Origin: Acidobacteriota bacterium
Lineage (GTDB): Bacteria; Acidobacteriota; Blastocatellia; Pyrinomonadales; Pyrinomonadaceae
DNA: 49,440 bases
NCBI GenBank assembly: GCA_003222845.1
Contig: QHXG01000166.1
Location: 1-49,440 of the forward strand
Direction of reading: 5' to 3'
This document shows, in pieces, positions 2,428 to 20,615 of this stretch (the first letter of the stretch is position 1; each line of letters begins with the position of its first letter). The notes beneath the pieces are model-generated. The model was not told the DNA's origin, ran no database searches, and saw only the letters and a list, made by a program, of their open reading frames with translations. The position numbers and the translations under genes are program-made.

Positions 2428-3570
2428 ATGACACCTTTTGGACGATATTTGTTGTTCTGCGCTTCGCTGATCGTTGCGGCGATCCTGCCGGGCTTTACTT
2501 ATCACACTGTCGCGCAGAATCCGGCGCAAAACAACAGTCGACCCCGTCGCGCCGAGGATGCACCGCAAAGCGCTCCTACGCCTCCCAAGAAGGAAGATGA
2601 GATCACCCTTCCGTCCGACGACGTGTTGAAGGTGGAAACCAATCTCACCAATGTTCTCTTTACTGCTTCCGACAAGCAGAAACGATTCATCAGCACGCTC
2701 AGGCGCGAGGATGTACGCGTGCTTGAAGACGGAGTACCGCAACAAATTTTCACTTTTCAACCGAACAGCGATCTGCCTCTGTCACTGGCAATTCTGATCG
2801 ATTGTAGTGGCTCTGAGGAACGCACCCTGCCGGAAGAAAAGGGAGCCGCGCGAACATTTCTCGAATCTGTCTTGCGTGCCGACAAAGACGAAGCCGCGAT
2901 AGTTTCCTTCACTGGCGAGGTCACACTCGAACAAGGGCTTACCGGCAATATTGCGCGCTTGCGTAGGGCGATAGATCAGGTTGAGTTTGTACCACCGTCA
3001 GGTTATATCGGCGGCGGTGTGGTGGTCGGGGGCACGCCTCCGATCTCCGGCACGCAGCAAACCCTGGCTGGTTCGACGGCGATCTGGGATGCAATCTGGG
3101 CGACATCGAACGAGCTGCTCTCAGAATCTGCCGAGCACACGCGTCGAGCGATCATCCTGCTGACTGACGGCGAAGACACCATCAGCCAGGTGCGCATGCA
3201 GGATGCAGTCAATCGGGCGGTGAAGGTCGATGCCTTGATTTACGCGATCGGCATTGGCGATCGTTATCAGTTTGGAATTAACGAAGGCGCTTTAAAGAAG
3301 ATCACCGAAAATACCGGAGGGCGAGCATATTTTCCGCGCAATGAACGTGATCTGCGCGACGCCTTCGCCCAGATTCAGAGAGACCTAAGAGAGCAATACC
3401 TGGTCGCGTATTCGCCTTCGAATAAAACTCGCGACGGGTCTTATCGTCGTATCACGATCGAAATCGTCAACCCCGAACTCCGCAAGGAAGGCTTCCGGCT
3501 GAATTACCGGCCCGGCTACTTCGCGAAGACTCCAGGATCCACGACCCCCACAAACGCCAAAAAACCTTAG
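2428..3570 (+). CDS. secreted VWA domain protein (paralog of 1412-2416)
   Basis: 380 aa with the same architecture: 'DVRVLEDGVPQQI', MIDAS 'ILIDCSGS', 'LLTDGEDT', 'GSYRRITIE'. It starts 12 nt after the upstream paralog. Confidence 0.8.
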   Translation: MTPFGRYLLFCASLIVAAILPGFTYHTVAQNPAQNNSRPRRAEDAPQSAPTPPKKEDEITLPSDDVLKVETNLTNVLFTASDKQKRFISTLRREDVRVLEDGVPQQIFTFQPNSDLPLSLAILIDCSGSEERTLPEEKGAARTFLESVLRADKDEAAIVSFTGEVTLEQGLTGNIARLRRAIDQVEFVPPSGYIGGGVVVGGTPPISGTQQTLAGSTAIWDAIWATSNELLSESAEHTRRAIILLTDGEDTISQVRMQDAVNRAVKVDALIYAIGIGDRYQFGINEGALKKITENTGGRAYFPRNERDLRDAFAQIQRDLREQYLVAYSPSNKTRDGSYRRITIEIVNPELRKEGFRLNYRPGYFAKTPGSTTPTNAKKP

Positions 3571-5230: not shown

Positions 5231-5554
5231 TCACGGATTCTTTGGCGTCACCGAAAGCGCAGGCGCCCGGCGTGGTGCGCTCGAATGCCAATGCACAATG
5301 CGCCAGCCGCCGTTGCGTTTTTCGAGAATTGCCGTGCCAAGTCCGCCGCCATCAACGTGTCGAGTCTTGCCGTTGTCCATAAAATCAGCGGCAATTGTGT
5401 ATTTCAGGGTCGCCCATGCTGTATTACCGGCAAGATGAATCTTTATATCGCTGAATTCGTATTTCGTGTTCTTCATCTCGCCCATTTCAGGAACGAGATG
5501 ATGTTCGCGATAGTCCGCCCAGCCATAATTAGCGTGGCCGCTCTCAAAGATCAT
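5231..5554 (-). CDS. NTF2-like (SnoaL/DUF4440-type) protein
   Basis: 107 aa. 'GNTAWATLKY...GGLGTAILEKRNGGWRIVHWHSS' is typical of the DUF4440/SnoaL-like fold. A signal-peptide-like 20-codon ORF with a good SD sits upstream in another frame (see findings). Confidence 0.6.
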   Translation of the reverse strand: MIFESGHANYGWADYREHHLVPEMGEMKNTKYEFSDIKIHLAGNTAWATLKYTIAADFMDNGKTRHVDGGGLGTAILEKRNGGWRIVHWHSSAPRRAPALSVTPKNP

Positions 5555-5641
5555 TAGCGACTTACCAGCAGAGCGACTAAGGCGAAAGTACCTTTGAAAT
5601 GTTTTTTTCGTTTCACATGGTTTCCCTCCTGTGAACTGTGC

Positions 5642-6070
5642 CTACTTTCGTTCCCAAGAAAGCAGCGCCACTCCACTGATCGTTAATAAGGTGCCGGCGA
5701 TTTTCATCCAACTCATGCTTTCACTTAAGAAGAGCCAGGAAAGGAAAAGCACCAGCAGGACATAGCTGGTAGAAATCCCAGTAGCCATTCCGACCGGAAG
5801 CTTCGACAGCGACAGCACAAAACAAATAGAGCCAAGCGCCATTAATAGTCCGATCGGTGCTCCTAACGGCAAAGCTTTGGTTGGAACGGTGAGACTGCCT
5901 TGTTTGATCCACAGGGCCGGTATCGCGGTGACTGCCATGCCGATCGCCATCAGAAAGTTCACTTGATACGGGTTCAACTGTTTCATGCTGAACTTCTCGA
6001 GAAATGAGGCGACGCCGACCATTACGATGTAGCCAGCCAGAAAGCCAAACCCAGACAGTGATGTATTCAT
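5642..6070 (-). CDS. small EamA/DMT-type membrane transporter (single EamA domain)
   Basis: 142 aa with 4-5 hydrophobic helices and an EamA-like pattern ending 'TLLTISGVALLSW'. Confidence 0.55.
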   Translation of the reverse strand: MNTSLSGFGFLAGYIVMVGVASFLEKFSMKQLNPYQVNFLMAIGMAVTAIPALWIKQGSLTVPTKALPLGAPIGLLMALGSICFVLSLSKLPVGMATGISTSYVLLVLFLSWLFLSESMSWMKIAGTLLTISGVALLSWERK

Positions 6071-6098
6071 CGTGTCCTTCCTTTCGCAAACTGTTGCG

Positions 6099-8042
6099 TC
6101 ATGGCTTCGAAGGCATCTTCTCTTCGTTTGATTTCATGTTCCCGTGCATTCCGTGCATCTTTCCCATCTCCATCTTGCGGGGACGGATTCGGAAAAACAG
6201 ACGCCACGAAACAGGATGGTTGCCGTAGAACTGATCGAGCACGGGAGGCTTTGAATAGAACGTGAGATCGCTTCCGAAGCCCATCGAGAGTCTGTCCGAC
6301 TTCCAAATGTCTCGGACGCCGCCGAAGGTATAAGCGCCGATGCGAAAGCTGGGATGGTCCTGCTTTATTCCCAGCTTGGCGCGCTCTGCCGGACGCAATA
6401 GATCGTCTTTGTCCACCAGTTCCAGCCGTGTGTACAGATAATTCCTGTCGAGGAAATTGACTGTGGACTCGGCTGTATAGCCATTTAGGTTTCCAACCTT
6501 ATCCGGACTATTAAGATGGTTGCGGCCCCAGATGACGCTCGTGGCCCAGTTGCCTCGATTGAATGGCTTGTTGTAACTGATGGACGCCGTAGTGCGGCGC
6601 ACATCGCCGGACTCTAACGTCTCTGGATGTCTGAGAAATCCGTAGCTCACTTGCATTGACCAGTTATTGTTTGGCTCAAACGAGAATCGCGCCGCACGAG
6701 AGTTCCATGGATGGGCCTCGAAGTTGTAACGATTCTCGTCCGGCTCTCTGCCGTTGAAGATCGAGCCTTCCACCTTGAACCAGCGATAGGTGAAGCCCGT
6801 CGTGAAAACGCCAAAACTGATGTGAGTGGAATCCTGAAGGTGATGCGACAGCGCCGCCGATGGATTCTCCGAGGCCGAAGCGCGATGCATGAATGCAGTT
6901 GGCCCAAGCGCCGGCTCGCCCGGATAGCCAAGATAAGTGAACCAGGTTCCGCGTTCGCCCAGCGCGACCGTGTACTGCGCCGACAGCTCCATCCAAAGAT
7001 CGTGCGGGTGCTGGCGATCGACTAGCGGCTGGCCCTTGAAAGTCTCTCCGGTTTGGAAAAGTAACGGCGAGCCTCCGCGAGCAAAAGTAAACGGCTCAAA
7101 ACTAAACATGCCGCGCAATTGCAGGGTCCCGTTGCCGAGTTTGTGAAAGGCCATCGGCATAAACCAGTTGACTGATTCGAATTTCGTGGTTCCTCGTGGT
7201 CCCCCTTGTGAGTTGATGCCGATGACTGCATTGTAGTGAAGCATCAAGAGCCATTTGCCCGCGATTTTATCAACCATGTGCATAGGCGATGAGGTGGGCT
7301 GCCAGGAAGTCCCAGATCCCATCTGTCCAAGATTCATCACATTGGCTTCACTGGCCCCGACTCGCACGCCCATACCTTCGCCAGACATCACCATTAGCGG
7401 CCCCATGTTCATATTCATTCCGCCCATGTCCATGCCGGGCATTTGACCCATCGGACTTGCTGATGGACTCGCTCCGGGCATCGGCATATTCATTTCCATC
7501 TTCGGTTGCGGAGAAGCTTGTGGATTTGGGGATGCTGACGGCATTTGCATACCGGGCATGTTCATCTCCATCTTCTGCGGCGATGCTGATGGCGATGGAC
7601 TTGTCTGCGGCATATTCATTCCCGGCATGTTCATTTGTTGCGGCGAAGGCTTAGGCGTCGGTGACTTTTTAGTCGCTGGCATTTCCATTCCGGGCATCTT
7701 CATTCCCGGCATATTGCCCATTTGATGTTTCGTGGTTGGCTTTTTTCGCGTAGTCCGATTCTTTCGCCGGGTATGTTTGTGCATTCCAGACATATTCATT
7801 CCGGGCATGTTCATGCCAGGCATGTTGGCCATGTTGTGTTTCTTTTCCGGCTTTCCTTTTTTGGTCGCGGTTCTTTTCTTTCGGCTCTTGGGTTTGCTCT
7901 TGCTCATGTTCATTCCACGCATGTTCTGCATGCCTTGGCCTTGAGCGATAGTACTGTCAGTTGAAGTAAGTACTAAGCCGGAAAAAATTATTGCGCTTAA
8001 CCCAACTATACGGACGGAAGCGCCAAAACCTGACCTCTTCAT
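6099..8042 (-). CDS. Met-rich outer-membrane beta-barrel-like protein (CopB/PcoB-like in concept, family not recognised)
   Basis: 647 aa. After a signal peptide comes a ~200-aa low-complexity region with about 44 Met in MPGMNM/MEMNM repeats, interspersed with Lys/Arg and Ser/Pro tracts. A ~400-aa Gly/aromatic-rich domain follows, then a Met/His tail 'MEMGKMHGMHGNM'. AAGGGGG SD lies before the ATG. Confidence 0.7.
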   Translation of the reverse strand: MKRSGFGASVRIVGLSAIIFSGLVLTSTDSTIAQGQGMQNMRGMNMSKSKPKSRKKRTATKKGKPEKKHNMANMPGMNMPGMNMSGMHKHTRRKNRTTRKKPTTKHQMGNMPGMKMPGMEMPATKKSPTPKPSPQQMNMPGMNMPQTSPSPSASPQKMEMNMPGMQMPSASPNPQASPQPKMEMNMPMPGASPSASPMGQMPGMDMGGMNMNMGPLMVMSGEGMGVRVGASEANVMNLGQMGSGTSWQPTSSPMHMVDKIAGKWLLMLHYNAVIGINSQGGPRGTTKFESVNWFMPMAFHKLGNGTLQLRGMFSFEPFTFARGGSPLLFQTGETFKGQPLVDRQHPHDLWMELSAQYTVALGERGTWFTYLGYPGEPALGPTAFMHRASASENPSAALSHHLQDSTHISFGVFTTGFTYRWFKVEGSIFNGREPDENRYNFEAHPWNSRAARFSFEPNNNWSMQVSYGFLRHPETLESGDVRRTTASISYNKPFNRGNWATSVIWGRNHLNSPDKVGNLNGYTAESTVNFLDRNYLYTRLELVDKDDLLRPAERAKLGIKQDHPSFRIGAYTFGGVRDIWKSDRLSMGFGSDLTFYSKPPVLDQFYGNHPVSWRLFFRIRPRKMEMGKMHGMHGNMKSNEEKMPSKP

Positions 8043-18330: not shown

Positions 18331-18482
18331 CATTGCCGATTGCCAATTGCCGATTTCCAATTTGAGGGCTCACGGTCATTTGCTTTCGGTCTTGGTTTTT
18401 TTAGCTGACAAACTCGTGAGCATTAGGCAAGACTGGGAAAACACGAGGTTAATCGGCAATCTGCAATCGAAAATCGGCAATG
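18331..18482. repeat. heptamer-periodic inverted-repeat element spanning the MBL gene start
   Basis: The left arm is TTGCCGA|TTGCCAA|TTGCCGA|TTTCCAA (18333-18360). The right arm is AATCGGC|AATCTGC|AATCGAA|AATCGGC|AATG (18451-18482). Nested complementary words pair 18331-18341 with 18472-18482 and 18345-18354 with 18451-18460. The right arm includes ATG 18480. Confidence 0.65.
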
Positions 18483-19433
18483 AAGATCATCCCCATCACC
18501 CTTCCCACGCCCTTCTACATCGGCCCCGTCAACGTCTACCTCATCAAAGAAGATCCCATTACCCTGATCGACACAGGACCCAAGACTAAAGAAACCGTCG
18601 ACGTTCTGCGCGCAGGACTGCAGAATGCCGGGATTTCAATTTCGGACATTCGGCGCATCGTGCTTACGCACGCGCATGAAGATCATTGCGGCTTGGCGCG
18701 GGCCGTGCGCGATGAGGCGAAGGAGGCCCGAGTTTTCGTGCACGGTTGGGAGACCGGTCATCGTGCAGGTCGATTGGAATATGAAGAGCACCGCCAGTTG
18801 CTTTTGCGCGCCGGCGTGCCGCGCGACGAGGTTGAAGCGATGCGGAAACTCTATGACAACTTTCGCCAATACGCGGACGCTCTCGACGACGAACACTGCA
18901 CTGAACTGATTGACCAAGCCGAATTGGAGTTTGAATCAGGCGTCTTGCAGGTCATTCATACACCAGGACACACGCCCGGCTCGTGCTCTTTCGTGCGCCA
19001 TGCGGATCGCACGGTCATCGCAGGTGATTGTGTGCTCAAGCGCATCACGCCGAATCCGATCCTTTCGGCGGATCCCGTCGATCCCTCTCGGCGTTTCAAG
19101 TCGCTACCCGAGTATCTGGTAAGTTTGGCCCGCGTGCGGAGCCTGGCACCGACGCTCGTGTTTGGTGGACATGGTGAGCCGGTTCGTGACTTTGAAGAAC
19201 TCTTCACGCGCTACTTGCGCTCTATGCGCGAGCGCCAGGCTCAAATACTTAGGCTTCTTCCTGACAACGGTGGCACCGCCTGGGAGGTTTCGCGCGCGCT
19301 GTTTCCCGACACTGACGACGTACATCGGTTCCTCGCTGTCTCCGAATCCGTCGCGCATTTGGACTACCTGCATCTGGAAAACAAGCTGGCGCTGGAAATG
19401 AACGACGGTCGCGAGATTTACCGGCTAATGTGA
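18480..19433 (+). CDS. MBL-fold metallo-hydrolase
   Basis: 317 aa with 'LTHAHEDHCG' (HxHxDH) and 'HTPGHTPGS'. Confidence 0.85.
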   Translation: MKIIPITLPTPFYIGPVNVYLIKEDPITLIDTGPKTKETVDVLRAGLQNAGISISDIRRIVLTHAHEDHCGLARAVRDEAKEARVFVHGWETGHRAGRLEYEEHRQLLLRAGVPRDEVEAMRKLYDNFRQYADALDDEHCTELIDQAELEFESGVLQVIHTPGHTPGSCSFVRHADRTVIAGDCVLKRITPNPILSADPVDPSRRFKSLPEYLVSLARVRSLAPTLVFGGHGEPVRDFEELFTRYLRSMRERQAQILRLLPDNGGTAWEVSRALFPDTDDVHRFLAVSESVAHLDYLHLENKLALEMNDGREIYRLM

Positions 19434-19467
19434 CAAACTCCGACCAGTTTGATATCGTGCCTGCGCG

Positions 19468-19938
19468 ATGTACCGAGTCTTTTTAAGTTACAACACACCG
19501 GATGAAATGACCGTGGTCTGGCGGTTGCAGACATTGGCTGCGGCATCTGGCTTGCACTTGGACGTTTTGAATGATCGCCAACGATCAGATCCTGCCAAGG
19601 TAACCAAGACAATCGATGATGCTGATTCTGTGATTGTGTTCCTGACTCAGCAACCAACCTCGCAAGTAAAAAGAGAGCTTTCATACGCACTGAAGCGAGA
19701 CAAGCCAGTGATTCCAATTGTTGAGATCGGGACAACGACGTCGCAGATCAAGCCTTTACTCCAGCACTCTGGAATTCCGGTTTTTGAACTCGACCCTCGT
19801 AATCCGGGACGGATGGAGAGCAGCCTTGCCGGATATCTGCAAAAACAAAAATACGATAAAGATACGAAGAATGCTCTATTGGCTTTGGCAGGTGCCTTTG
19901 TTGGTCTGTTCCTGTTAGATAAGCTCGCTGAGAGCTAA
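19468..19938 (+). CDS. TIR-like domain protein with C-terminal transmembrane helix
   Basis: 156 aa. 'YRVFLSYNTPDE', 'ADSVIVFLTQQPTSQVKRELSYALKRDKPVIPIV' follows the bacterial TIR_2 pattern (FLSY start, S..V..EL helix with a candidate catalytic Glu, IPI strand). The C-terminal 'ALLALAGAFVGLFLL' is hydrophobic. Confidence 0.6.
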   Translation: MYRVFLSYNTPDEMTVVWRLQTLAAASGLHLDVLNDRQRSDPAKVTKTIDDADSVIVFLTQQPTSQVKRELSYALKRDKPVIPIVEIGTTTSQIKPLLQHSGIPVFELDPRNPGRMESSLAGYLQKQKYDKDTKNALLALAGAFVGLFLLDKLAES

Positions 19939-20496
19939 ATGCCACGCTCCCGCTTCGAAAAATCCGAAGTAGTAATCGATTCATCATGCCTTCGATGCAT
20001 GCTAGTCCTGAATCGAGTATTCCCACAGTATAGGCTTTTCAATGCACTGGCTCTCAGATATTACGTTGTGCACATTCCTCAGCATGTTTGGAACGAGGTT
20101 GGCCGAAAGGGACACACGCGAGGCCCACTGAAGCGACTCGTTCAAAGGCACCAGATCTTTCAAAGATGTGACGTCGGAAGTCAACACCGCGCGAAACTTC
20201 TTTACGACCGCCAAACAAACCCGCGGGCTCCTATTCATCGAGGTGAAGCTGAGACGATCATCCAAGCTCAAGAGCTCGGAATCTCCGAGGTCTTGATGGA
20301 TGAGCGCAAGGGTACAAAGATCGCTCTAGCGCATAGTCTTAATCCTCGAGGAATCGTCGGCCTCATCAGGGAGTTCACGTTGAATGGTGTCATTCCCGAG
20401 GCCCGACCTCTCTTTGAAGAGTGCAAACGAAATCGCTTCTGGCTCGATGATGAATTAATAGAAAGCGTACTGAAGGAAACGGGCGAGTCTCCATAG
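19939..20496 (+). CDS. PIN-like nuclease domain protein (DUF3368 type)
   Basis: 185 aa. 'VVIDSSCL', 'GEAETIIQAQELGISEVLMDERKGTKIA', 'GIVGLI' match the DUF3368 PIN-like pattern. The ATG directly follows the TIR gene's TAA (TAAATG). Confidence 0.65.
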   Translation: MPRSRFEKSEVVIDSSCLRCMLVLNRVFPQYRLFNALALRYYVVHIPQHVWNEVGRKGHTRGPLKRLVQRHQIFQRCDVGSQHRAKLLYDRQTNPRAPIHRGEAETIIQAQELGISEVLMDERKGTKIALAHSLNPRGIVGLIREFTLNGVIPEARPLFEECKRNRFWLDDELIESVLKETGESP

Positions 20497-20615
20497 TCTT
20501 TTGCGGTCATTCGCAGGTCGCACACCTGTGACTTTGATTTCAACCCAAAACAATTTGGAACCGAGTTAAGTTATTCGGCGTGAAGAGTCTAAAATCTTTC
20601 CGGAGGACTCCGTAT

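Follow-up and report, generated by a model that had tools for sequence, protein, structure and literature searches.

A tail-anchored TIR-like protein coupled to a DUF3368/PIN nuclease: a candidate two-gene module of Acidobacteriota

TIR-domain enzymes have a central place in the immunity of bacteria, plants and animals, and a very large family of toxins is of the PIN/VapC type. In the stretch of DNA from a soil member of the Acidobacteriota analyzed here (contig QHXG01000166.1, positions 1-49440, hereafter the window), one gene of each type follows the other on the forward strand. Gene A (19468-19938) encodes a tail-anchored TIR-like protein of 156 amino acids (aa), and gene B (19939-20496) encodes a DUF3368/COG2405 PIN-like nuclease of 185 aa that is of the PADLOC PDC-S70 type. 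The pair seems to be an undescribed toxin-antitoxin (TA)-like or anti-phage module. Full-text literature searches returned no description of TIR together with DUF3368/PIN, of TIR in the UPF0175 slot, or of a pair formed by a PIN nuclease and a TIR protein with a transmembrane (TM) helix. A preliminary description of the locus had likewise found no named system for the combination; this holds for the pair, but B alone is matched by the PADLOC candidate PDC-S70.

The closest described systems are the pairs of UPF0175 (COG2886) and DUF3368/COG2405 genes. COG2405/DUF3368 proteins were listed as potential TA toxins in a survey of the PIN superfamily, in which UPF0175 was found exclusively in COG2405 genomic context (PMC5499597). 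At a locus of canonical relatives of B, the 153-aa DUF3368 gene overlaps by 4 nt the end of an 83-aa UPF0175 gene directly upstream, which bears out the survey and the earlier statement that DUF3368 proteins normally pair with a small UPF0175-type antitoxin. The pair in the window shares with these operons the toxin family, the PIN fold and the acidic residues, an upstream partner coupled by overlaps of 0-4 nt, and occurrence as solitary mobile bicistrons in varied contexts. It differs from them in its partner, UPF0175 being replaced by a 156-aa TIR-like tail-anchored protein with no detectable DNA-binding domain, and in the greater length of B. The possibility that A is a disguised UPF0175 protein was considered and rejected: A has no Pfam match to that family (PF03683), and hhalign comparison of the family alignment of A (designated A1) with a UPF0175 protein gave a probability of 0.7%.

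PDC-S70 is defined as a single gene. With one PDC-S70 representative in E. coli B, T7 and T4 plated ~100-fold and T5 ~1000-fold less efficiently (bioRxiv 10.1101/2024.09.26.614923). B matches the PADLOC PDC-S70 models at 1.1e-21 and 1.2e-20, and B together with all its clade relatives matches these HMMs at 1e-15 to 1e-26. Here, unlike PDC-S70 as defined, the PIN protein is obligately coupled to a TIR-like membrane protein and lies outside defense islands. PADLOC would label B a single-gene candidate, yet in this clade B is one half of a two-gene system.

With Thoeris, the pair shares a two-component logic and a small stand-alone TIR protein with a putative catalytic Glu, and remote relatives of A score as ThsB-type. 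Unlike Thoeris, it has a PIN protein as partner; no ThsA-type effector, SLOG or Macro domain was found in scans of B, the neighbors in all contexts are housekeeping genes, and the Trp of the WxxxE motif has been lost from A. To our knowledge, neither tight translational coupling nor a C-terminal membrane anchor on the TIR protein is typical of ThsB.

Coupling and co-divergence of the two genes

In the open reading frame (ORF) list of the window, A begins with MYRVFLSY and B with MPRSRFEKSEVVIDSS. All motifs quoted in the preliminary description (VFLSY, SVIVFLTQQPTSQVKRELSYAL, PVIPIV, VVIDSS, GEAETI and LMDERKG) were located in the two ORFs. The junction (19936-19941, forward strand) reads GAG AGC TAA ATG, the stop codon of A abutting the start codon of B as previously described, and the purine-rich stretch GAGAG in the final codons of A lies 4-8 nt upstream. 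A and B of the window are in the same reading frame with a single TAA between them, whereas at most other loci the genes overlap by 1 or 4 nt and are in different frames. The gap between the two genes is -4 to +3 nt in 15/15 pairs measured, with A always upstream, so that the TIR-TM protein does occupy the position usually held by the antitoxin. Because the junction stays within these limits while the relative frame varies, we favor translational coupling over a split gene or a readthrough product. A split, readthrough or fused gene was rejected on these grounds.

Relatives of the pair were collected from other assemblies; loci are designated by L numbers and single proteins by P numbers. A is followed directly by B in ~37 loci representing at least 14 genomic contexts, down to ~35% identity, so the two genes are indeed conserved as neighbors elsewhere, a point on which the earlier proposal depended. 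The order was found wherever downstream sequence exists: in the window, in L001-L007, in 12 of the 16 loci from species-representative genomes, in L028 and in L108-L115. When the search was started from B (L121-L124), A likewise adjoined it. The pairing extends to two remote clades (L116-L119) in which A scores barely or not at all as TIR. Two apparent exceptions, L108 and L124, proved to be gene-calling misses. B of L108 (5508-6005) starts with TTG directly after the stop codon of A, and A of L124 (3530-4000) starts with GTG; both were missed by the public calls, and automated surveys will therefore under-count the pairing. The identities of A and B co-vary over the loci (Mantel r 0.84, a value reached in 0/5000 permutations). 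Note that B is not the neighbor at L120, whose tail-anchored TIR is canonical and the most remote.

The TIR-like protein and the PIN nuclease

A matches Pfam TIR_2 (PF13676) over residues 4-86 with 33.6 bits and an E-value of 6e-8 (gathering cut-off 28 bits), and all 29 aligned homologs of A match the same model (best E 1.7e-10). The reading of the first ORF as a bacterial TIR protein is upheld by these matches. The Pfam model ThsB_TIR is also matched by 11/29 relatives (best 1.1e-6). For A of the window itself the E-value with ThsB_TIR is 0.21, and that with the PADLOC ThsB model is a marginal 0.0039. No PADLOC model is matched significantly by A of the window or at all by deep-branch A proteins, and NCBIfam scans of A and B gave nothing significant. 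The PADLOC check that had been suggested for the locus is thus positive for B (1.1e-21) and no better than marginal for A (ThsB, E 0.004). A search of 1.8 billion proteins with the A1 profile reached tail-anchored proteins of the TIR_2/ThsB type at ~1e-11. The Blastocatellia/Pyrinomonadaceae branch contains 179 clusters of A homologs, and the Terriglobia/Acidiferrales branch at least 717.

An AlphaFold2 (AF2) model of A, built from the family alignment, has a pLDDT of 85 and a pTM of 0.82. Its five β-strands alternate with helices, and residues 131-155 form a long helix at the C-terminus. Foldseek searches of the Protein Data Bank with this model gave weak matches, with E-values from 7e-5 to 5e-3 and query-normalized TM-scores of 0.45-0.59. 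One group of matches consists of TIR domains (SPARTA TIR-APAZ, RPS4, SARM1, TcpB and BtTir), and the other groups, as good as the TIRs or better, are WrbA/flavodoxin-like proteins and the N-glycosidases MilB, BcmB and DNPH1. As to the structural check of the TIR fold called for in the preliminary description, the modeled topology is compatible with TIR, but the Foldseek matches do not distinguish TIR from the related nucleoside N-glycosidase/2-deoxyribosyltransferase folds. Many deep-branch A members carry the JGI name “nucleoside 2-deoxyribosyltransferase” and co-match PF15891 or PF05014. From these names and co-matches and from the Foldseek groups, the A family is placed within TIR_2 by sequence and, by sequence and model together, near the border with the N-glycosidase fold.

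The Glu singled out earlier, in the motif KRELSY, is the putative catalytic residue Glu70 (GAG codon at 19675-19677, forward strand). It is invariant in all 303 relatives compared, comprising 108/108 Blastocatellia-type, 114/114 Terriglobia-type and 81/81 broader representatives at 50% identity. Nearly all other positions vary across these three sets, and Glu70 is the single most conserved residue. The first ORF is thus conserved, a lack of conservation having been named as grounds for abandoning the proposal. Searches of solved-structure sequences with the A1 profile returned nothing significant. The best real match was C. elegans TIR-1 (E 0.56), and in this non-significant alignment the profile T-k-q-V-k-k-E-L-e-y-A-l...v-i-P-I-v lies over edWVHKELKCAFEHQKNIIPIFD, with Glu70 opposite the Glu of VHKEL. 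A link to Acinetobacter baumannii AbTir was reached solely through a bridging homolog, P0408, a remote relative of A from the A1 profile search (E 6e-11) that matches Pfam TIR_2 with 58.9 bits. P0408 aligns with AbTir (7uwg/8g83) at E ~1e-3, SPWVNQEIG being placed over KDWTNYELD. Glu70 shares an hmmalign column with the Glu of P0408 and thereby with E208, the Glu of the AbTir WxxxE motif (WTNYE). On this alignment A keeps an intact, putative catalytic Glu on its αC helix.

In AbTir, E208 of W204-xxx-E208 is catalytic, and cells expressing E208A lose far less NAD+ than those expressing the wild type (bioRxiv 10.1101/2023.05.19.541320). The W204A variant has lower activity and an altered product, so that the Trp matters for both the rate of NAD+ hydrolysis and the cyclic product (PMC10937652). 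This Trp is absent from family A. At position -4 the protein of the window has Gln (SQVKRE), its relatives have Ser, Ala or Pro, and remote canonical relatives of A retain SxWVNQE. Compared with the TIR NADases AbTir, SARM1 and SPARTA TIR-APAZ, A has a modeled five-stranded flavodoxin-like fold compatible with theirs, the βA motif VF(L/I)S(Y/H) and the αC Glu column. It differs in the replacement of the Trp at -4 by Gln, Ser or Ala, and the similarity of its model to these enzymes is weak (query-normalized TM 0.45-0.57), no better than that to MilB, BcmB and DNPH1.

A ends in a hydrophobic helix, as first described, which we assign as a tail anchor (ALLALAGAFVGLFLL, residues 136-150, at 19873-19917 on the forward strand). 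The 19-residue segment of highest hydrophobicity is placed 2-3 residues before the C-terminus in 115/118 homologs (mean Kyte-Doolittle score 1.76), and deep-branch sequences, where examined, have 19 uncharged residues there and scores above 2.0. Within alignment A1, residues A139, A141, G142, L147, L149 and L150 of the tail helix are invariant, and the anchor carries a small-residue motif of the form AG-xxx-G. Because a Lys-rich stretch precedes the helix and no signal peptide is present, the TIR-like domain is predicted to face the cytoplasm. A second conserved element is the αA motif (V/I)WRLQTLAA, which is invariant in both main branches (Blastocatellia-type and Terriglobia-type). It is weaker in broader relatives of A and hence looks family-specific, which suggests that the WRLQTLAA helix is a protein-protein interface.

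Tail-anchored TIR-like proteins of 150-170 aa form a broad class: the search of representatives gave 1130 at E ≤ 1e-3, and the anchor is present in most of those that are full-length. Two further observations concern this class. Giant proteins of 1000-2300 aa (P0302, P0314, P0324, P0330 and others) contain 3-7 tandem stretches matching the A profile and are thus TIR-like repeat arrays. At L120 (65-1414), a canonical tail-anchored TIR_2 protein (58.9 bits, WxxxE intact, ThsB-type matches) is preceded, across a 15-nt gap, by a 284-aa ORF with no Pfam or PADLOC match; here a tail-anchored TIR protein may be the basis of another two-gene system.

B matches Pfam DUF3368 (PF11848) with 31.3 bits (gathering cut-off 27.3). 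Its AF2 model has a pLDDT of 91 and a PIN/VapC fold, for which Foldseek returned the PIN domain of Rrp44 as well as VapC15, VapC20, VapC4 and PAE0151. The profile of the family alignment of B (designated A2) found no match among solved-structure sequences. In A2, no substitution occurs at E53, E103, E105 or D121, and the conservation of D14 is 90% or higher; D14 is at the end of β1, E103 and E105 lie in RGEAE, and D121 is in L-x-D-E. Exceptions are the archaeal copy L020, in which acidic residues are lost, and L014, which has Thr in the E53 column. The second ORF is accordingly confirmed as a DUF3368/PIN-like protein. Since the acidic residues are conserved in nearly all bacterial members, B is most likely an active nuclease, judging from sequence and model. 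It is 10-30 residues longer than the canonical 153-aa DUF3368 protein owing to an N-terminal extension and to internal, clade-specific insertions. Pfam, NCBIfam and PADLOC scans of B detected PIN/DUF3368 alone and no SLOG, Macro, SAVED, CARF or other known nucleotide-sensor domain.

Genomic contexts of the cassette

In the window the pair lies between genes for an MBL-fold hydrolase (18480-19433) and a PDZ protein, and neither these flanks nor the neighboring genes resemble an obvious defense island, as had been remarked before. The approximate limits of the cassette, between the MBL stop codon and the conserved region upstream of PDZ, are 19434-20545 (forward strand). With the MBL protein as probe, ~40 metagenomic loci were recovered (MBL 60-79% identical) in which MBL is followed directly by PDZ and neither A nor B is present. 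Only L028 among the MBL-probe loci, with an MBL protein 100% identical to that of the window, carries the pair. The order MBL-A-B-PDZ was also found in L001, L009 and L121-L124. Because MBL and PDZ adjoin without the cassette in the ~40 related loci, we regard the cassette as an insertion of ~1.1 kb, and because the four-gene order recurs in the loci just named, as one common to a sub-lineage. From ~20547 onward the right flank aligns with the empty site of L029. GC content is 47-51% in the cassette and ~55-58% in the flanks. The cassette ends were checked for target-site duplications and terminal inverted repeats, and none were found.

Across the at least 14 contexts of the pair, the neighbors are always housekeeping genes. 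These contexts include Iso_dh/Ldh, FG-GAP/ALAD, R3H/MnmE, HtrA/aldo-keto reductase, RNase E/beta-lactamase, RecA-transpeptidase/TPP-POR, ABC transporter/radical SAM and PTPS/CofH, in addition to others. A pattern scan of 185,579 species-representative genomes gave 16 loci, of which 15 are in Acidobacteriota. No integrase or transposase adjoins the pair in the window or at most loci, the sole case being an rve-family integrase 3 kb away at L108.

The cassette appears to bring its own promoter-like and terminator-like signals, both found by consensus scans. A promoter-like element, GTGACA-N17-TATCGT with a TG-extended -10, is present at 19430-19458 (forward strand) and ends 9 nt before the ATG of A. 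In three further contexts, A is preceded by similar elements of the form (G/A)TGACA-N17-TAT(C/G/T)(G/T)T. At Terriglobia-type loci the sequence TA(A/C/G)(A/G)AT stops 7-10 nt short of the ATG, an arrangement that may point to a leaderless mRNA. The statistics of the promoter-like elements are marginal (8/13 contexts versus 8/28 background ORFs, p ~0.05). A terminator-like hairpin with a T-rich tail follows the stop codon of B by 15 nt (20511-20541, forward strand); it is well placed, but is not significant alone (1 found versus 1.7 expected by chance). In the 49-kb window as a whole (1-49440), no tRNA or tmRNA gene was found, and no Rfam family was matched at its gathering threshold.

Two minor observations belong to these contexts. 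At L112-L115 (1663-2201), a DUF433/PIN_10-DUF5615 TA pair lies 3 kb upstream of the pair, and downstream there is a faint Zeta_toxin-like ORF; in no other context are there further TA genes nearby. The MBL homologs (18480-19433 in the window, and those of L121-L124) show a faint match to Pfam Anti-Pycsar_Apyc1. Because the MBL-PDZ adjacency is kept without the cassette in ~40 loci, this match probably reflects generic MBL similarity with no functional link to the pair.

Weighing the readings of the pair

We assign a probability of about one half to the reading that the pair was acquired horizontally as a self-contained module of two genes, of the TA-like or abortive-infection type, in which A restrains B at the membrane. 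In this scheme, B would be a catalytically intact PIN nuclease, most likely an RNase toxin. A would be held in the cytoplasmic membrane by its tail anchor, the catalytic domain facing the cytoplasm, and would have displaced the usual UPF0175 antitoxin. Both proteins would be made from one short transcript by translational coupling, and A would bind B at a ratio of ~1:1 on the inner membrane face and keep it inactive. A would also retain Glu70-dependent NAD+/nucleotide N-glycosidase chemistry, to be used as a sensing or second-output step. A trigger, which may be phage infection, membrane damage or a perturbation of NAD+, would free or activate B, and the freed B would cleave RNA and arrest growth.

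Restraint of B by A is favored because the slot and geometry are those of UPF0175-DUF3368 operons and because the coupling is stoichiometric. It is also favored by the invariant, non-catalytic surface of A (WRLQTLAA), as would be expected of a partner-binding face. The pairing seen from both A and B, the co-divergence of the two proteins, the intact PIN residues of B and the reduced phage plating with a PDC-S70 representative count in its favor too. Two decaying copies suggest that B is the dispensable, harmful partner, since in both of them A is intact. B of L011 (4006-4209) is truncated to 67 aa, and B of L020 (3968-4903, in a Ca. Caldarchaeum metagenome-assembled genome, MAG) is truncated to 141 aa and carries E53Q, E105H and D121N next to an A that retains its Glu. 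Note that L020 is the sole non-acidobacterial copy of the pair; it has either been transferred horizontally and is decaying, or is a contaminant introduced by binning. The accessory status of the module follows from the ~40 empty sites, the lower GC content, the at least 14 contexts, and the promoter-like and terminator-like sites.

Several findings weigh against restraint of B by A. No HTH, RHH, AbrB or Phd domain was found in A with Pfam, NCBIfam or PADLOC, and in the model the TIR-like fold and the TM helix account for the whole protein. Since A has neither a DNA-binding domain nor similarity to UPF0175, classical type II autoregulation is unlikely. Defense-island context was not seen at the loci examined. 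Plasmid carriage was not found either (A had no plasmid match, and B had remote DUF3368 matches only), and there were no relatives among IMG/VR viral contigs in the pattern scan and no PHROG families. In two long-read MAGs, L021 (3956-4978) and L022 (3983-4488), A looks frameshifted while B is intact; A is fused in frame to B in L021 and split in two in L022. These frameshifts may be sequencing errors, which would be indistinguishable from real decay; if they are real, A is not essential for neutralizing B. Lastly, invariance of Glu70 is unneeded in a purely binding antitoxin and points to an enzymatic role that restraint of B by A explains loosely. Because this reading accounts poorly for Glu70 being the most conserved residue, three enzymatic alternatives remain.

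The alternative that survives best, although it is unlikely, is a Thoeris-like pair in which membrane-bound A would make an NAD+-derived signal upon infection and B would be a PIN effector, inactive until it bound the signal. It draws on the TIR_2 assignment of A, the 11/29 relatives matching ThsB_TIR and the remote tail-anchored relatives that are clear ThsB-type TIRs. An invariant Glu70 is expected of a signal-producing enzyme, and the clade-specific extra segments of B could form a ligand site. No known nucleotide-sensor domain was found in B with Pfam, NCBIfam or PADLOC, however, and its closest relatives are toxins that need an antitoxin. Coupling at -4 to +3 nt implies that the two proteins are co-produced in stoichiometric amounts, as is more typical of complexes, and A lacks the WxxxE Trp and matches PADLOC ThsB only at E 0.004.

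Less likely again is a SPARTA-like arrangement with the roles reversed, in which B would sense nucleic acid, whether or not it also cleaves it, and cluster A at the membrane, and A would be the NADase effector that depletes NAD+. Among the better TIR fold matches of A, several are to SPARTA TIR-APAZ chains (8ifk, 8u72, 8qlp and 8spo), but these matches are weak (E 4e-4 to 5e-3, query-normalized TM 0.49-0.55) and do not surpass the matches to N-glycosidases or flavodoxins. The operon is of the heterodimer style, yet neither APAZ nor Argonaute is present. A tail anchor with an AG-xxx-G motif would favor clustering in two dimensions, and TIR NADases need oligomerization. The conservation of Glu70 above all other residues of the A family is in keeping with an NADase, whereas the loss of the NADase-relevant Trp is not, and the PIN catalytic residues kept by nearly all bacterial B proteins would be superfluous in a pure sensor.

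Improbable, and placed below the SPARTA-like arrangement, is a type VII-like or joint RNA-directed activity, in which A would be a glycosidase acting on B, on NAD-capped RNA or on a nucleotide cofactor, in sequence with the PIN nuclease. We know of no reported case of a TIR domain modifying a protein toxin, and we count this against the proposal. The invariance of Glu70 is as it should be for such an enzyme, A and B would both be RNA/nucleotide enzymes, and the A family lies on the border between TIR and nucleoside 2-deoxyribosyltransferases (PF15891, PF05014; MilB, BcmB, DNPH1). TIR domains can also take nicotinamide off NAD-capped RNAs (PMC10937652). The proposal is, however, compatible with almost any of the sequence data given here.

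Least probable of all is that the pair belongs to no conflict system and is a lineage-specific housekeeping pair, serving for example in membrane-associated RNA processing in Acidobacteriota: its constant housekeeping neighbors, its stable inheritance at the Iso_dh-Ldh site across 48-68% identity and its absence from the plasmids and viral contigs searched would fit, but the presence/absence polymorphism at the MBL-PDZ site, the at least 14 insertion contexts, the recovery of only 16 loci from 185,579 species-representative genomes in the pattern scan, the GC dip, the pseudogenized copies L011 and L020, and the membership of B in a family of TA toxins and defense candidates all speak against it.

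Returning to restraint of B by A, a more specific version is tentative: a tail-anchored TIR-family enzyme may have been recruited as the regulator (antitoxin or switch) of a PIN toxin, where it would make the release of an RNase depend on membrane status or on chemistry with NAD+/nucleotides or NAD-capped RNA. If this were so, the pair would be, as far as the literature we found goes, the first TA-like system to be regulated by a TIR-domain protein, and perhaps one member of a larger unrecognized class in which a small tail-anchored TIR protein is combined with a variable partner (compare L120). Control of B by A would represent a new class of antitoxin or regulator, enzymatic and membrane-anchored instead of DNA-binding, as well as a new wiring of TIR chemistry to an effector with no known nucleotide-sensor domain. 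With ~900 clusters at 90% identity, the module is frequent among uncultured Acidobacteriota of soils, a phylum that is dominant and has been little studied, and its size of ~1.1 kb makes it easy to synthesize and test.

One last observation concerns the conventional pairs. At L024-L026, two separate UPF0175-DUF3368 TA pairs (2753-3462 and ~5290-6180) are found within 3 kb, one source naming an Akkermansiaceae bacterium.

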